Source: Promethearchaeota archaeon
GTDB lineage: Archaea; Asgardarchaeota; Lokiarchaeia; Sigyniarchaeales; SOKP01
Direction: 5' to 3'
Assembly (NCBI GenBank): GCA_030606485.1
Contig: JAUWGH010000011.1
Coordinates: forward strand, 30,001-62,000
DNA: 32,000 bases
Notes under the pieces: generated by a model
Databases searched by the model: none
Seen by the model: the letters and a program-made list of their open reading frames with translations, nothing else
What the model was told of the DNA's origin: nothing
Shown: positions 3,080 through 29,100 of the stretch, in pieces
Numbering within the stretch: position 1 is the stretch's first letter
How the letters are laid out: each line of letters begins with the position of its first letter
Position numbers and translations under genes: made by a program

Positions 3080-4609
3080 TTATTCCTCATCTTTGACGAT
3101 ATATTTTGTAATATCATCTTCATAACTGTGAAAATGGAACTTCTCTGGACTCAACAAAAAATTTGGATCCACAGTTCTCTTCATATCCTTAAAAAATTGG
3201 ATAAATTCCGGTGTGTAAGCACCAGCCTCAACTATCGACTGCGAAATTGCCTCTCCAAGCCAATAATGAACTCCACCATATTTTACTTGATGCCTTAATT
3301 TCTTATGCCACATATTCATCGCAATCTGGCGTTGTTCCTCAATATTGTCTGCATTAAAACCGCCTACAAAAACACAATTTCCGTTAGGTAATAGAAATAT
3401 ACATGTGGCAAATAAAGATATACTTCCAGGTGGAAATTCAGCCCGATACTTTGCATCAAATTGAGTGCTTAATTTAACTATTTCTGGTATAGATGAAATT
3501 GGAACTTTATGACAAGTTGTGCAGGATATCTTTGGTGGTTGAATAGAAATGTATTGATTAAAATAATTATAGGCAAACTTTAAATTGAACTCCCAATCCT
3601 TTGATAATGGCTGGCTTAAATCAATTTCCTGCCATTCAAATGGTCTGGCATCATCTTTCATAATCTCATCAACTTTTTCTTGATAAACATCCAAGATTCG
3701 CTGATCAAATGCCTCCAACCCAACCATAAAGACAGAACCTCTTATTTTAGGTCTTGTGGGAGGTTTTTGCTGTGCCATACCCTCCATAAATTTAACCACA
3801 GTAAATGGTACAAGAATTAAATCATGTAATCCATCATTAACTTCTTTTCGCAATCTGTACATTATTTCGAATACTTTATTATAATCATTCTTGTTAAGGA
3901 TATAATGTCGCTGAGATTTGAATGGAGCATCCGGAAATATTTTTAAAAATGCTTTAGTCTTAATCCCCATGGTTCCCACATCCCCCATAAAAAGACCCGT
4001 GAAATCCGGTGCAACTCCATACCGGCAAAATGGCTTTGCATATTTACTTGCGGCTGCCCCTGTTCTCAAAATAGTTCCCTGTGGGTTTGGTAATACAACC
4101 TCAACTCCCAAACATATATCAGGAACTAAACCATATTTTGTCGAACCAAACCCCGCTGTGCTATTAGAAAGACCGCCCCCGATGGTCGCTGAGTAACCGC
4201 TTCCAGGTCCCAGAACTCCCGTTGTTAGACCTTTCTTTTGCAATTCTGAAACCAAAATGCCCCAAGTTATTCCACACTCAACCTCACAATAATAATCTAT
4301 TTCATTAATCTCCAAAATCTGATTCATTCTCGTAAGATCCATCAGAATTCCTCCCTCGGTGACTGACCCCCCAACCAAGTCAGCGCCACCGCCCCTCGGA
4401 ACCATGTGAATCTTGTATTTGTTCGCAATCTTGATAATTTCTGATACTTCCTCCGTTGATTGCGGTCTTACAATCATATCTGCCCATCTATCGGGAAAAG
4501 CGGGGTCAACATTTCTCGAATATGCTGCTTTCATGAAATCCTTATCAGTAATATAATCCGAGCCAATAATTTTTTCTATCTCAACATACACTTCCTTAAC
4601 TTTGGACAT
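3080..4609 (-). CDS. FAD-binding oxidoreductase (GlcD / D-lactate dehydrogenase / VAO-type, FAD_binding_4)
   Basis: IVRPQSTEEVSEIIK, VPRGGGADLVGG, MDLTRMNQILEI, ATIGG, GLEV-like CLGVEVVLP, GTMGIKT and DPNFLLSP. Confidence 0.9.
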   Translation of the reverse strand: MSKVKEVYVEIEKIIGSDYITDKDFMKAAYSRNVDPAFPDRWADMIVRPQSTEEVSEIIKIANKYKIHMVPRGGGADLVGGSVTEGGILMDLTRMNQILEINEIDYYCEVECGITWGILVSELQKKGLTTGVLGPGSGYSATIGGGLSNSTAGFGSTKYGLVPDICLGVEVVLPNPQGTILRTGAAASKYAKPFCRYGVAPDFTGLFMGDVGTMGIKTKAFLKIFPDAPFKSQRHYILNKNDYNKVFEIMYRLRKEVNDGLHDLILVPFTVVKFMEGMAQQKPPTRPKIRGSVFMVGLEAFDQRILDVYQEKVDEIMKDDARPFEWQEIDLSQPLSKDWEFNLKFAYNYFNQYISIQPPKISCTTCHKVPISSIPEIVKLSTQFDAKYRAEFPPGSISLFATCIFLLPNGNCVFVGGFNADNIEEQRQIAMNMWHKKLRHQVKYGGVHYWLGEAISQSIVEAGAYTPEFIQFFKDMKRTVDPNFLLSPEKFHFHSYEDDITKYIVKDEE

Positions 4610-17088: not shown

Positions 17089-17994
17089 TCACTTCTCTTT
17101 TATTTCTAATAACTCCCACACTTTTACCATTTTATCATATGATCCGCTGACTATGTAGTTTCCATCTGGAGAAACCGCAACCGAAAATACATCAGCTTTA
17201 TGCCCCCTAAGAGTGCGAATGAGCCTTCCCGTTCCTAATTCCCACACTTTTACCGTTATGTCCACTGGCCCTGCTCCGCTGACTATGTAGTTTCCATCGG
17301 GAGAAACCGCAACCGATAACACCTCATCTTCATGCCCTTCAAGAGTGCGAACGAGCATTCCCGTCCCTAACTCCCACACTTTTACCATTTTGTCCCATGA
17401 TCCGCTGACTATGTAGTTTCCATCGGGAGAGACCGCAACCGAACTCACATCAGCTTTATGCCCTTTAAGAGTGCGAATGAGTCTTCCCGTCCCTAATTCC
17501 CACACTTTTATCGTTTTATCAACTGATCCACTGACTATGTAGTTTCCATCGGGAGAGACCGCAACCGAATCCACAGGACTTTCATCCTCTTTAAGAGTGC
17601 GAACGAGCCTTCCCGTCCCTAATTCCCACACTTTTACCGTTGCGTCCAATGATCCGCTGACCATGTAATTTCCATCAGGAGAGACCGCAACCGAATTCGC
17701 CCAACTTTCATGCCCTTCAAGAGTGCGAACGAGCCTTCCCGTTCTTAATTCCCATACTTTTATCTTTTTGTCAGATGATCCGCTGACTATGTAGATTCCA
17801 TCGGGAGAGACCGCAACCGAATACACACCACCTTCATGCCCTTTAAGAGTGCGAACGAGCATTCCCGTCCCTAATCTCCACACCTTTATCGTTTTATCAA
17901 CTGATCCACTGACTATGTAGTTTCCATCGGGAGAGACCACAACCGACAACACAGTACCTTCATGCCCTTTAAGGGTGCGAATAGACAGTTCCAT
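17089..17994 (-). CDS. WD40-repeat protein, single 7-bladed beta-propeller
   Basis: Seven repeats of consensus TGRLVRTLKGH..V.SVAVSPDGNYIVSGS.DK.VKVWELG (42 aa; blade 6 is 44 aa). Confidence 0.95.
   Translation of the reverse strand: MELSIRTLKGHEGTVLSVVVSPDGNYIVSGSVDKTIKVWRLGTGMLVRTLKGHEGGVYSVAVSPDGIYIVSGSSDKKIKVWELRTGRLVRTLEGHESWANSVAVSPDGNYMVSGSLDATVKVWELGTGRLVRTLKEDESPVDSVAVSPDGNYIVSGSVDKTIKVWELGTGRLIRTLKGHKADVSSVAVSPDGNYIVSGSWDKMVKVWELGTGMLVRTLEGHEDEVLSVAVSPDGNYIVSGAGPVDITVKVWELGTGRLIRTLRGHKADVFSVAVSPDGNYIVSGSYDKMVKVWELLEIKEK
17107..17994 (-). repeat. Coding tandem repeat, 7 x 126 bp (one unit 132 bp)
   Basis: Recurring DNA such as GACTATGTAGTTTCCATCGGGAGAGACCGCAACCGA and AAGAGTGCGAACGAGC at about 126-bp spacing. 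Confidence 0.9.
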
Positions 17995-18418: not shown

Positions 18419-18826
18419 CTAAAAAAATTCAGATAACCTAAGTTCTGTTGCATCTTCACCATCCAAATTAGGTCCTGGAAAGAGAAAAGGGGAAAGTCCA
18501 GCTCCCAATCCAGCTCCTAAACGAGGATATCTGATTGTTGATAGAACTAATATTCGATTTTTGCCCGCAGCCATTATGAGGATTAAGCCATTATCTCCCT
18601 CAATCATAATTCTCTTTAGATTTCCACGAACAACCTCTAAAACCCCACGTTCTCCTAATGAAAATATCGCAGCGGTCATAGCGGCAATTTTTGTATCATC
18701 GATCGCCTCGGGAAAAACACTTACAATAAGGGACCCCTCTATTGAAACAATTGCTCCAGCCTCAACGTCAGGATTGGACTTAACCAATCTTTTTAATTCT
18801 CGCTTAAGTGATTTTAAATCATCCAT
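18419..18826 (-). CDS. Roadblock/LC7 (MglB-like) protein, copy 1
   Basis: NPDVEAGAIVSIEGSLIVS, IAAMTAAIFSLGERG, IMIEGDNGLILIMAAG and LVLST give the roadblock alpha-beta-beta-alpha-beta-beta-beta pattern. Confidence 0.9.
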   Translation of the reverse strand: MDDLKSLKRELKRLVKSNPDVEAGAIVSIEGSLIVSVFPEAIDDTKIAAMTAAIFSLGERGVLEVVRGNLKRIMIEGDNGLILIMAAGKNRILVLSTIRYPRLGAGLGAGLSPFLFPGPNLDGEDATELRLSEFF

Positions 18827-18957
18827 TAATTTCTCATTGGATCATTATTTCTCAAATTTATATAAAAATAAATTTAGAAGATAAGTTATTTAATAATTGT
18901 GATAGGAACTAAATAAAATTTATTAATGTTTTATTCAATCTTATTTCCGCAATTTTT
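18503..18957. repeat. About 455-bp dispersed direct repeat, second copy at 28479-28932
   Basis: Covers most of the roadblock CDS, its upstream intergenic region (GGATCATTATTTCTCAAATTT...GAAGATAAGTTATTTAATAATTGTGATA) and the last codons of the upstream zinc-ribbon gene. Confidence 0.95.
18931..18957 (-). pseudogene. Orphan C-terminal half of a double zinc ribbon (KNCGNKIE*)
   Basis: AAA AAT TGC GGA AAT AAG ATT GAA TAA aligns to KICGNKVE* at the end of the 28906-29100 ORF. An in-frame stop lies a few codons upstream. Confidence 0.7.
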
Positions 18958-26722: not shown

Positions 26723-26812
26723 TTAGTTAAAAATTTTCTGTTCCTTTGTTAGTTTGCTTCCGCAATGCTTACAAAATTTTCGACTCTTTATCAATTCTAC
26801 TGTTTCTTTCAT
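26723..26812 (-). pseudogene. Out-of-frame, truncated zinc-ribbon tail of the gelsolin gene
   Basis: MKETVELIKSRKFCKHCGSKLTKEQKIFN* aligns without gaps to ETKVLIKSRKFYKNCGSKLKNRQKV of the 28906 ORF. One extra A in the A7 run near 26840 would fuse it to the gelsolin ORF. Confidence 0.75.
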
Positions 26813-26826
26813 CACTATTGTCGTTT

Positions 26827-27735
26827 TTACCGTTTGATTTTTTTCTCTTTTTCTTTAATTTCAATGTTTTTTTTCTTAATTAAGTCTTTTAAATAATCAA
26901 TCTGACTAGTTTTTCTCATATTTTCTTCCTTTAAATTAGTAATTAATAGTCTTTGTTTTTTCAACTTCTCTTGTAAATCTCTAACAAGATTATGTACAGG
27001 TATTTCCTCCTCTTTAATCTCAATTATATGACCATTTGATTTAGATCCTTTCTTTCTTTCCTGTTCTAATTGTTGCTGAAGCTGAATTTTTTCTTTTCTA
27101 AGTAAACCCATGTTAATCTTTAATTCCCTATATTTTTTTTCTGTTTCTTCTAATTTCAACTGTAATTTTTTAGCATATGCACGTTTTTTTCCGTACTTAT
27201 CAATTAGATCATTTAATTTATTTAATTCTTCTCTATATGAGGATATTGATATTTCACTAATCTCTAAATCCGTTTTGAGGTGTTCAATTTCTCTATTTTT
27301 AAAATCAAATTCCTTTTTTATTTGATTTACCTCAACTCTCAGTTGATCTATGCTTTCCTCAATTTGTTCTTTTAATTCAATTCCTTCTTTTGGTTTTATT
27401 TCTTGTTTTATTTCTATTTTATCAAATTTTTTTGCAAGTTTAATACTTTTACTTCCTTCTATAAACTCAAGAAAATCACGGGGCTCTATCCCTTCGTCTA
27501 CAGGCACAACTGAATACTCCAAACCTACTTGCCCTCTAATATCTTGGCTTTTTTGAGCACCAATAAATTTCTTTCTAACTGATGATTCTGCCCCCTTCCA
27601 TAACCAAATTGTTTTATCAGGGGGATCACTGATGATAATATACACTTCAAAAGTCTTCAGGATATCCTTTATATCTTTATCGATTTGTATTTCTTCTATT
27701 TCTCCAGTTTCTAATACTTTAAATATCCGGATCAT
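26827..27735 (-). CDS. Single gelsolin/villin-like domain plus long coiled coil
   Basis: VYIII...IWLWKGAESSVRKKFIGAQKS..IRG...VDEGIEPRDFL resembles Asgard gelsolin domains (W.G..S, EG.E..F). Residues about 100-302 are heptad-rich. Confidence 0.8.
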   Translation of the reverse strand: MIRIFKVLETGEIEEIQIDKDIKDILKTFEVYIIISDPPDKTIWLWKGAESSVRKKFIGAQKSQDIRGQVGLEYSVVPVDEGIEPRDFLEFIEGSKSIKLAKKFDKIEIKQEIKPKEGIELKEQIEESIDQLRVEVNQIKKEFDFKNREIEHLKTDLEISEISISSYREELNKLNDLIDKYGKKRAYAKKLQLKLEETEKKYRELKINMGLLRKEKIQLQQQLEQERKKGSKSNGHIIEIKEEEIPVHNLVRDLQEKLKKQRLLITNLKEENMRKTSQIDYLKDLIKKKNIEIKEKEKKIKR

Positions 27736-27865
27736 ATTTTATGCCGTTGAGATTATCATAATTTTTTTGAATGTTAATAAGATAAATTTGTTTTTTATCC
27801 ATCAATGTAAAAATGCTAATATAATTTTTAAAATCTTTCCTAATTTTCGTATATCAATAACTTCC

Positions 27866-28387
27866 TTATCTTTTAGATTTCTCATCCAATGCCATTTTTG
27901 CAATCCTAGAGAAAATTTCAGATGCTCCTTCTTTTGAAACAACCGAAGTTTCAATATAGTTCAGTTTAAAATCTTCAATTAATTTCTCAACTTCCTTGTG
28001 AGATACAGTAAAAAAATTGGAATATCTTTTATTTCCCACAAGAAGTATAGGAATACCTACAGCATTCTTCCTAACTAAGTTAATCCAATCAGGCAAATTC
28101 TCGAAAGATCTCCGATCGGCAAAATCGAAAAATAATATCAACCCTTCAGCTCCTTTAACATACTGCGGGAATAAAAATTTGTACTTTTTTTCACTTCTAA
28201 AATTCCACAATTGTAGTTTTACTTTTATATTTGCGATCTCAACATTTTTACTGAAAAAATTAACTCCAATAGTAAGGCTCAGATCCTCCTCAAATAATTT
28301 AGGCTTATTAATATGACGTGATAAAAGCGCTTTCTTAATCCAGCCCTCGCCTAACATTAATATCTTAAATGTTTCATCAGTCTTCAT
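27866..28387 (-). CDS. Rab/Ras-like small GTPase fold with degenerate G1, G3, G4 and G5 motifs
   Basis: FKILMLG, TIGVNF, VKLQLW, YVKGAEGLILFFD, SFENL..W, PILLVGNK and YIETS show the Rab-like scaffold; the catalytic motifs are altered. Confidence 0.88.
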   Translation of the reverse strand: MKTDETFKILMLGEGWIKKALLSRHINKPKLFEEDLSLTIGVNFFSKNVEIANIKVKLQLWNFRSEKKYKFLFPQYVKGAEGLILFFDFADRRSFENLPDWINLVRKNAVGIPILLVGNKRYSNFFTVSHKEVEKLIEDFKLNYIETSVVSKEGASEIFSRIAKMALDEKSKR

Positions 28388-28457
28388 TTAAGATTTTTCC
28401 TCCACTCTAGTTAATTTAAATATCAAGTCTGAAATTAATCTCTTTTTTCTTCAATAT

Positions 28458-28802
28458 TCAGGTATCAATTAAGAAATCTCCTAATCCAGCTCCTAAACGA
28501 GGATATCTGGTTGTTGATAGAACTAATATTCGATTTTTGCCCGCGGCTATTATGAGGATTAAACCATTATCTCCCTCAATCATAATTCTCTTTAGATTTC
28601 CACGAGCAACCTCTAAAACCCCACGTTCTCCTAATGAAAATATCGCAGCGGTCATAGCGGCAATTATTGTATCATCGATCACCTCGGGAAAAACACTTAC
28701 AATAAGGGACCCCTCTATTGAAACAATTGCTCCAGCCTCAACGTCAGGATTGGACTTAACCAATCTTTTTAGATCTCGCTTAAGTGATTTTAAATCAACC
28801 AT
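28458..28802 (-). CDS. Roadblock/LC7 (MglB-like) protein, copy 2
   Basis: Nearly identical to 18419-18826 through RYPRLGAGLG, then a different short tail (DFLIDT). Confidence 0.9.
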   Translation of the reverse strand: MVDLKSLKRDLKRLVKSNPDVEAGAIVSIEGSLIVSVFPEVIDDTIIAAMTAAIFSLGERGVLEVARGNLKRIMIEGDNGLILIIAAGKNRILVLSTTRYPRLGAGLGDFLIDT

Positions 28803-28905
28803 TAATTTTTCATTGGATCATTATTTCTCAAATTTACTAAAAATAAATTTAGAAGATAAGTTATTTAATAATTGTGATAAGAATTAACTAAAATTTATTA
28901 ACCTT

Positions 28906-29100
28906 TTATTCAACCTTATTCCCGCAAATTTTACACACTTTTTGTCTATTTTTGAGTTTGCTACCGCAATTCTTATAAAATTTCCTGCTTTTTATTAACA
29001 CTTTTGTCTCATTATCAATTACTTTTATATTTCTATAGCCTTTTATTTTTTCTATTTCAAAGCCATCTAACGTTTTTATCAGTACATATACCTCGATCAC
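28906..29100 (-). CDS. Short double-zinc-ribbon ORF, possibly the remnant 3' end of a longer gene
   Basis: KFYKNCGSKL...KVCKICGNKVE, with the first Cys replaced by Tyr. GTG start. Homologous to the gelsolin tail at 26723-26812. Confidence 0.5.
   Translation of the reverse strand: MIEVYVLIKTLDGFEIEKIKGYRNIKVIDNETKVLIKSRKFYKNCGSKLKNRQKVCKICGNKVE

Follow-up and report, generated by a model that had tools for sequence, protein, structure and literature searches.

Asgard archaea possess several gelsolins besides dozens of small GTPases and roadblock proteins. Very little connects individual GTPases or regulators with actin, and operon structure seldom helps (PMC10933270). In MK-D1, GTPase and roadblock genes generally do not share operons (Tran et al. 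2024, PMC10933270). The gelsolin-domain protein 1DGelX binds and severs actin in vitro in a calcium-independent manner, and its C-terminal extension converts a weak binder into a severing protein (PMC7444086). In eukaryotes, nucleotide-free pseudoGTPases, such as CENP-M and the pG1 and pG2 domains of p190RhoGAP, serve as scaffolds (reviewed in PMC10211241). Here, we analyze a 32,000-nucleotide (nt) stretch (hereafter the window) from a Promethearchaeota archaeon (assembly GCA_030606485.1), in which a roadblock gene, a gene for a degenerate Ras-like protein, and a gene for a gelsolin-domain protein are adjacent. A reading of the DNA alone (the original prediction) had interpreted these genes as a scaffold-type module that couples a roadblock/G-domain complex to the Asgard actin cytoskeleton.

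The three-gene cassette is real DNA, and it is a young, genus-restricted mosaic rather than a conserved signaling module. The locus combines known kinds of components, namely Asgard mini-gelsolins, pseudoGTPases, and roadblock neighbors. With somewhat better than even confidence, we regard it as an accessory, strain-variable block that was recently assembled from copies of conserved genes, with the pseudo-GTPase and the gelsolin-domain protein as its core and the roadblock gene as an optional part.

Organization of the Locus

The analyzed genome (G000) consists of 3.75 Mb in 13 contigs, and the window corresponds to C13:30001-62000; coordinates without a contig name refer to positions in the window. 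Based on a list of open reading frames (ORFs) and Pfam matches, the minus strand carries, in order, ZnR64, RobB, a Ras-family gene, and GelCC. RobB (28458-28802, minus strand) encodes a Roadblock/LC7 protein of 114 amino acids (aa) that matches the Robl_LC7 profile (PF03259) over residues 11-95 with an E-value (E) of 8e-13 and 48.4 bits against a cut-off of 23; the Roadblock domain is complete and the protein is a member of this family. The Ras-family gene (27866-28387, minus strand, 173 aa) follows after 70 nt, and a spacer of 130 nt (27736-27865, minus strand), which is part of a segment around the gelsolin gene that is highly conserved as judged by identity to the congener G002, separates it from GelCC (26827-27735, minus strand), an ORF of 302 aa. 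The ORF coordinates agree with the three co-oriented genes and the 70- and 130-bp spacing of the original prediction, and its domain calls also held, the roadblock and Ras-like domains by Pfam and the gelsolin domain by structure.

The genome contains 37 Ras-like and 17 roadblock matches. The adjacency in the window is the only unfused one between a roadblock and a GTPase gene in this genome, and the three other co-locations are all RB-GTPase fusions inside one ORF. The chance of one unfused adjacency is estimated at ~0.25 per genome, and the RobB-GTPase adjacency taken alone is unremarkable. Scanning for transcription signals returned 15 sigma-70 sites (14.8 expected) and zero intrinsic terminators, using models that are not suited to archaea.

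Distribution of the Gene Pair and Its Variable Flanks

Orthologs were sought in 60 relatives and in a large protein database, which contributed the metagenome loci L099 and L100. An ortholog of the pseudo-GTPase was present in a single relative, the congener G002 (55% aa identity), and this protein is also degenerate, with G1, G3, and G4 destroyed by partly different substitutions. All matches in the remaining relatives are at most 48% identical and represent other paralogs, and the pair of pseudo-GTPase and GelCC has no ortholog in the 59 other relatives, including the 100%-complete congener G001. In G002, a GelCC ortholog follows the GTPase gene and is 96% identical at the aa level over 125 residues up to the contig end. 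The upstream flank in G002 encodes a 93-aa zinc ribbon and a 112-aa ORF and contains no roadblock gene; collinearity of this contig (G002:C208) with the window begins at 28479, adjoining the border at 28478 of the duplicated patch that carries RobB (see below).

The metagenome locus L100 is 98% identical at the nt level to 28714-26865 and has RobB upstream like the window. Downstream of the pair, it carries a 125-aa roadblock gene (L100:2022-2399), a called ORF of 58 aa, and a radical-SAM gene, and the 125-aa roadblock is at most 43% identical to any roadblock of G000. L099 is 96% identical to 28368-26788, with an RNase H gene and a 46-aa ORF upstream of the pair and a radical-SAM gene downstream, and no roadblock gene was found in L099 within 4.8 kb upstream or 3 kb downstream of the pair. 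The 274-aa radical-SAM gene of L099 and L100 and the 125-aa roadblock gene of L100 have no nucleotide-level counterpart in G000; both belong to the accessory gene content of this hot spot.

The pair is thus known from four carriers, close strains or species of one genus (the window, L100, L099, and G002), and the flanks differ in all four. Because the pair is kept in the four carriers while the flanks change, the persisting unit is the pseudo-GTPase plus GelCC. A roadblock gene adjoins the GTPase gene in two of the four carriers. The synteny comparison across relatives, which had been suggested as a check, went against a conserved three-gene cassette: the order was found only in the window and L100, and not in independent lineages as would be expected of a conserved cluster or operon.

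DNA of the locus was found in cold-seep and marine-sediment metagenomes of nine studies. One DNA contig spans the RobB-GTPase junction without a difference (28344-28540), and others span the junction between the GTPase gene and GelCC. Since independent assemblies and contigs from other studies bridge both junctions, these are not assembly artifacts. Several 3' junctions coexist in natural populations (26865, 26811, 26788, and 26733), and the L100-type junction at 26865 was found in two further studies. One short contig from another sample (X3) joins 28936 straight to 26733, giving GelCC, then an unsplit zinc ribbon, and then a roadblock gene. This joint reflects either a contiguous GelCC-ZnR-roadblock arrangement into which the 7.8 kb of the window were inserted or a tandemly repeated 2.2-kb unit. 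Contigs from one RNA-library run (X20) cover 26999-27456 only, within the coiled coil of GelCC, and are a weak hint at expression of this gene.

Origin of the Genes by Duplication and Fusion

Judging from nucleotide matches within the genome, all three genes are young copies of conserved genes located elsewhere. The roadblock gene lies on a duplicated patch (28478-28932) that was delimited by blastn and alignment and is 95% identical to 18502-18957, 10 kb away (blastn, 95.2% over 456 nt). This patch of 455 nt comprises the last ~25-50 nt of a zinc-ribbon ORF, a 103-nt spacer, and roadblock codons 1-108. The copy at 18.5 kb contains RobA (18419-18826, minus strand), which encodes a roadblock protein of 135 aa (Pfam, E 7.2e-13) and is ancestral to RobB as indicated by its synteny with the congeners. 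RobB is 92% identical to RobA at the aa level; it does not have the last ~25 residues of RobA and ends in a 6-residue tail instead. The orthologs of RobA/RobB in two congeners (88% aa identity) are collinear over 1.4-2.6 kb with the 18.5-kb copy, not the 28.5-kb copy, and the RobA locus aligns with G001:C11 at 92% and with G002:C62 at 95% identity. Because the congener orthologs are syntenic with the 18.5-kb copy only, RobB is the derived copy. Both the roadblock gene upstream of the pair and the spacer preceding it would have arrived on the 455-nt paralogous patch.

GelCC matches two different genes of the same genome. Its gelsolin domain is 79% identical at the nt level to C2:161134-161402, in a 114-aa single-domain gelsolin gene (C2:161053-161397), and 73% identical to a GelX-type gene on C7. 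Its coiled coil is 77% identical to C2:93705-94123, the 5' part of a gene for a 396-aa coiled-coil protein (C2:93702-94892). GelCC is a chimera of a ProGel-type gelsolin domain and a coiled coil of ~190 aa copied from another gene. The nearest intact paralog of the pseudo-GTPase is a Rab-like GTPase (C5:328362-328904) with 40% aa identity and a 152-nt match at 72%, and the pseudo-GTPase probably derives from such a Rab-like paralog. The genes adjoining this GTPase (C5:326612-328904) are presumably ribosomal-protein-like (L1, L10/P0, and L12/P1). Both the pseudo-GTPase gene and GelCC are single-copy in the genome. The suggestion that the cassette had been tandemly repeated therefore stands for the zinc-ribbon/roadblock junction, which does occur twice, but not for the cassette, as only the 455-nt patch is duplicated.

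Short zinc-ribbon-like sequences accompany these copies. ZnR64 (28906-29100, minus strand), an ORF of 64 aa with three Cys only, matches the Pfam Zn_ribbon_3 profile with an E-value of 3.8e-4 and 20.3 bits, under the cut-off of 27. A relic ORF of 29 codons (26723-26812, minus strand), recognized from its sequence and by alignment, corresponds to the N-terminal half of a ZnR64 paralog. Four Cys/His ligands in two knuckles, as in a zinc ribbon proper, were found in neither: ZnR64 has three Cys, the relic has the first CxxC alone, and the Pfam matches are below the cut-off. The relic had been described as part of the gelsolin protein; it is instead a separate ORF in another frame that begins 14 nt past the GelCC stop codon. 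Upstream of RobA, alignment revealed an orphan zinc-ribbon end (18930-18957), and this end and the relic are complementary halves of one ZnR64 paralog with an overlap of ~10 nt. The two halves are separated by 7.8 kb with TPR, LRR, and other genes, and the junction at 18957 is common to the window genome, G001, and G002. The relic is only ~75% identical to ZnR64, whereas the RobA and RobB patches are 95% identical, which makes it likely that the roadblock patch was recently converted or copied anew.

On the contig G002:C62 (L094), a 133-bp piece with the zinc-ribbon end, the spacer, and the roadblock start is repeated again at 4279-4411, upstream of the RobA ortholog; the zinc-ribbon/roadblock junction therefore behaves as a small repeat. 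A WD40 gene downstream of RobA (17089-17994) is missing at the collinear G002 locus, where the sequence passes from position ~18462 of the window straight to ~16330. The zinc-ribbon/roadblock units may represent recombining flanks of the two-gene core.

Loss of Nucleotide-Binding Motifs in the Ras-like Protein

The Ras-like protein matches Pfam Ras (PF00071) over residues 8-165 with an E-value of 2.5e-27 and 95.9 bits and is a member of this family by sequence; with the NCBIfam model TIGR00231 (small_GTP), it scores 39.6 bits, under the cut-off of 42.5. Its G motifs were assessed by alignment with ten intact paralogs from the same genome, all of which contain GxxxxGKT. The G1 motif of the protein reads GEGWIKKA and does not conform to GxxxxGK[ST], as the second Gly and the Mg-binding Ser/Thr are gone. 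G3 is NFRS in place of DxxG, G4 is NKRY in place of xKxD with loss of the guanine-specificity Asp, and G5 has a one-residue insertion. The switch-I Thr and the switch-I/interswitch sequence are retained. Among the carriers, G1 is GEGWIKKA (the window and L100), GEGWIRKA (L099), or GEDRIKKE (G002), G3 is NFRS, NFRG, or DFAA, and G4 is NKRY or IKSH. In a genome-wide scan of the 37 Ras-like matches, the window gene was the sole full-length one without G1, G3, and G4. Three partial Ras-like matches (G000:C8:185065-185478, C10:229672-229887, and C10:304026-304385), located in ORFs of 272-334 aa, are without recognizable G1 and G4, and two of them retain a DxxG-like G3; these may be further degenerate G domains.

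The comparison with the ten paralogs thus bears out, at the sequence level, the description of this GTPase as catalytically dead. Because the P-loop lacks its second Gly and its Ser/Thr, and both DxxG and the guanine-specificity Asp are gone, the protein is probably nucleotide-free, and most likely it neither binds Mg-GTP nor switches. It may act as a nucleotide-independent adaptor, like CENP-M or the pseudoGTPase domains of p190RhoGAP. No description of archaeal pseudoGTPases was found in the literature searched.

A ProGel-like Domain Fused to a Coiled Coil

By sequence alone, GelCC is sub-threshold for the Pfam Gelsolin family (15.5 bits against a cut-off of 21). An AlphaFold2 (AF2) model built with a 19-row alignment shows a domain at residues 1-95 with a predicted local distance difference test (pLDDT) score of 85-93, followed by a disordered linker and long helices at 115-181, 185-235, and 247-301. 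The N-terminal domain (27451-27735, minus strand), assigned to the gelsolin/cofilin fold and ProGel-like on the basis of AF2, Foldseek, and invariant columns, has the actin-bound Thorarchaeota ProGel (7c2f_B) as its top Foldseek match (E 3e-8, template modeling score 0.89, root-mean-square deviation 1.8 Å). The next matches are Asgard 2DGels and eukaryotic gelsolin, villin, and adseverin. The family-invariant residues W, R, K, F, A, S, Q, R, and G on and around the long helix of this domain are kept, and by homology to solved gelsolin-actin complexes this helix would be the actin-binding helix. The remaining part (residues 115-302; 26830-27393, minus strand), delimited by blastn, helices, and heptads, has a heptad periodicity with z = 7.4 against shuffles. 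The anticipated coiled coil of about 200 aa was therefore found at nearly that size, with ~190 aa in three long helices.

Alignment of GelCC with the GelX family extends over the gelsolin domain only. In place of the conserved linker motifs and the C-terminal X domain, GelCC has the coiled coil, and it thus does not belong to the 1DGelX/GelX orthologous group. Searches of PADLOC and NCBIfam with the locus proteins and their neighbors returned nothing beyond generic coiled-coil resemblance and the sub-cut-off small_GTP match. GelCC may dimerize via its coiled coil and present two ProGel-like actin-binding heads, and by analogy with 1DGelX it could bind, sever, or bundle Lokiactin filaments.

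Selection and a Step in Divergence

Ratios of nonsynonymous to synonymous substitution rates (dN/dS) were estimated by the Nei-Gojobori method from few substitutions. For the pseudo-GTPase, dN/dS is 0.19, 0.37, and 0.42 among three close strains and 0.51-0.58 relative to G002, with dS at ~0.6. The values are 0.43-0.50 for GelCC and 0.5-0.57 for RobB, and RobA itself ranges from 0.5 to 0.96. In the gelsolin domain alone, nine nonsynonymous changes and one synonymous change separate the two closest strains. The parent GTPase on C5 has a dN/dS of 0.13 relative to its orthologs in G001 and G003. All three ORFs are intact wherever they are present among the four carriers, with no frameshift or stop. 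Constraint on the genes of the locus, as read from these substitutions, is relaxed relative to the parent genes but not absent or neutral.

Divergence is uneven along the locus. Between G000 and G002, the GTPase gene and its upstream region are ~70% identical at the nt level, and from the GTPase stop codon (~27870) onward the identity is 96-97%; the corresponding dS values are 0.63 and 0.10. Because noncoding DNA shares the divergence, recombination with an old allele explains this step better than positive selection at the codon level.

A Conserved GelX-Roadblock-vWA-Actin Cluster in the Same Genome

The true GelX ortholog of this genome (C7:39110-39931) encodes 273 aa comprising a gelsolin domain, a linker with conserved motifs, and an alpha+beta X domain. 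Its gelsolin domain is modeled with pLDDT >90 and has 7c2f_B as the top Foldseek match. A dedicated roadblock gene (130 aa) lies ~100 nt downstream. GelX is directly upstream of a co-oriented roadblock gene in 21 of 26 loci from relatives and in 79 of 80 loci from public genomes, the latter having been fetched using the C7 roadblock as the query. The block C7:37429-45550 (L095, L181) encodes a YjeF-like protein, GelX, the roadblock protein, a CDC48_N/vWA protein, an MraZ/AbrB-like protein, a 230-aa ORF, and an actin paralog. Across the 80 loci, the YjeF-like gene is present in 65 and the gene for the 721-aa CDC48_N/vWA protein in 74. In at least 17 genomes of the family, GelX is followed after 3-13 kb, on the same contig and strand, by the gene for the actin-family paralog (400 aa; Pfam Actin, E 1.5e-46).

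A complex prediction for a C7 roadblock dimer with full-length GelX gave an interaction prediction score from aligned errors (ipSAE) of 0.25 against a mark of 0.32, which is evidence neither for nor against an interaction. A roadblock fold for the X domain of GelX was ruled out by the order of its secondary-structure elements (helix, five strands, helix); the Foldseek matches of GelX are dominated by the gelsolin domain. No description of the gelsolin-roadblock link was found in the literature searched.

Competing Explanations for the Locus

Several observations weigh against an accessory, strain-variable block with an optional roadblock gene. The step from 70% to 96-97% identity is not accounted for by simple vertical inheritance of a unit, and the dN/dS values rest on few substitutions. 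Moreover, the pair has roadblock neighbors in three independent arrangements (RobB upstream, a 125-aa roadblock downstream, and a ZnR-roadblock unit downstream), where ~0.04 would be expected by chance given 17 roadblock matches in 3.75 Mb, so that co-location with a roadblock gene may be under selection and not incidental. The three configurations far exceed chance and reflect either selection for co-location or a recombining nest of zinc-ribbon/roadblock units. The notion of a roadblock gene as a pure chance neighbor was dropped, because L100 and the X3 joint show other roadblock configurations. A looser linkage of GTPase and roadblock genes at 3-7 kb in other genera was likewise dropped, as opposite-strand housekeeping genes lie between them in the two loci checked of four. 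That the three genes constitute a functional scaffold, in which a roadblock dimer docks a nucleotide-free Ras-like protein that recruits or regulates a dimeric gelsolin on Lokiactin, is in our judgment unlikely. Such a scaffold would fit the recurrence of roadblock genes from two unrelated paralogs beside the pair in three configurations, the three intact ORFs with dN/dS <1, the preserved switch-I/interswitch sequence of the pseudo-GTPase, and the GelX-roadblock-vWA-actin cluster, which links roadblock and gelsolin genes elsewhere; in L. ossiferum, an Arf GTPase and five gelsolin-homology proteins were co-precipitated with Lokiactin (bioRxiv 10.1101/2025.11.30.690169). However, L099 has no roadblock gene on either side of the pair and G002 has none upstream, and RobB is a truncated duplicate that shares 95% identity with the parental gene and includes a spacer of its own upstream. 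All three genes are preceded by separate upstream regions of 70-130 nt, the recombination breakpoints are located between genes, and operons of roadblock and GTPase genes are not typical of Loki-type genomes (PMC10933270). The original prediction of a scaffold-type module hence retains its domains, the dead motifs, the recurring roadblock flanks, and the link between GelX and roadblock genes, but the cassette is not conserved, the roadblock gene is present in two of four carriers, and selection is relaxed. Adjacency unique to the lineage and relaxed selection had been named as grounds for abandoning that proposal, and they apply largely to the roadblock link and by half to the pair of GTPase and gelsolin genes.

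We consider it quite improbable that the locus is evolutionary debris, i.e., redundant copies and chimeric genes at a hot spot of recombination that drift toward loss without a function of their own. All parts are partial or chimeric copies surrounded by zinc-ribbon relics, a 100%-complete congener lacks the block, and the dN/dS exceeds the value of the parent GTPase three- to fourfold, with the 9:1 ratio of nonsynonymous to synonymous changes in the gelsolin domain and the 0.5-0.96 of RobA pointing in the same direction. Drift toward loss is nevertheless difficult to reconcile with the lack of a frameshift or stop codon in any carrier despite a GTPase dS of up to 0.6, with a dN/dS <1 in most comparisons, and with the retention of the invariant gelsolin residues; the RNA-library contigs over part of GelCC are a weak hint in the same sense. 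It is very improbable that the pair belongs to the cargo of a variable conflict- or defense-type island and is under diversifying selection, its gelsolin or Ras-like surfaces taking part in an arms race, for example with viruses that exploit host actin. The strain-variable surroundings do encode WD40, TPR (tetratricopeptide repeat), LRR (leucine-rich repeat), NYN RNase, and ParB-DUF488 proteins, the GTPase allele is very divergent (70% nt identity) beside flanking DNA of 96-97%, and the variable flanks and strain-specific presence are also in line with such an island. Yet the three proteins and their neighbors have no PADLOC match beyond generic coiled-coil resemblance, no effector such as a nuclease or NTPase accompanies the pair in every carrier, and the divergent segment includes noncoding DNA, which indicates recombination and not positive selection on codons. 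For the recently assembled block that we favor, partnership with a roadblock protein would be optional rather than built in.

Implications

Rather unlikely, in our estimation, is also that the pair with its changing roadblocks is a functional, lineage-specific offshoot of the GelX module, in which a roadblock dimer would hold a nucleotide-free adaptor with a Ras fold that places a dimeric coiled-coil gelsolin on Lokiactin. If so, the Ras-like protein would be the first archaeal pseudoGTPase with a function, and the locus would offer a direct genetic handle on how roadblock/GTPase-type regulators were wired to actin before eukaryotes. As a block assembled from copied genes, the locus illustrates shuffling: a Rab-like paralog appears to have lost its nucleotide motifs yet remained an open reading frame, a ProGel-type actin-binding domain gained a predicted dimerizing stalk, and the two genes co-move among roadblock-rich contexts. 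It represents a natural experiment in how eukaryote-signature genes and their domains recombine, and it provides a candidate archaeal pseudoGTPase. Because its distribution is narrow, the pair says little about the ancestor of eukaryotes, and the GelX-roadblock-vWA-actin cluster of the same genome is a better target for that question.

Comparison with Known Systems

As in MglB-MglA, Ragulator/LAMTOR-Rag, and the RB-GTPase fusions of Asgard archaea (PMC10933270), a roadblock protein is encoded beside a Ras-superfamily protein in the window. In contrast to MglB-MglA and Ragulator-Rag, the GTPase in the window is without G motifs and the adjacency is not conserved. A relationship with a GTPase-activating protein (GAP) or guanine nucleotide exchange factor (GEF) would make no sense here, because the pseudo-GTPase, having lost its G motifs, most likely cannot cycle. 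A conserved pairing with a cognate cycling GTPase, as in an MglB/Ragulator-type module, was thus not found: the adjacency occurs in two of four carriers, the roadblock gene lies on a copied patch, and the partner has lost its G motifs. The pseudo-GTPase shares with CENP-M and with pG1/pG2 of p190RhoGAP a G-domain fold that is kept, nucleotide motifs that are lost, and a presumed protein-binding role. The origins are independent, and the archaeal protein appears to be a recent, lineage-restricted offshoot of a Rab-like paralog.

GelCC resembles 1DGelX and ProGel (Akil et al. 2020, PMC7444086; PDB 7c2f) in having a single gelsolin domain, and its arrangement of one gelsolin domain plus a C-terminal extension is that of 1DGelX. 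The extension of GelCC, however, is a coiled coil of ~190 aa from an unrelated 396-aa protein and not domain X, and GelCC is confined to one genus. With the GelX-roadblock-vWA-actin cluster, the locus has in common that genes for a gelsolin-domain protein and a roadblock protein are co-oriented neighbors in a Loki-type genome. The GelX cluster is nearly invariant, has the order gelsolin to roadblock with a roadblock of another subfamily (~25% identity to RobB), and contains no GTPase gene, whereas the cassette in the window has the order roadblock-GTPase-gelsolin and is young and strain-variable. The GelX cluster lends support to the broader notion that, in these archaea, roadblock proteins and regulators of actin are connected.

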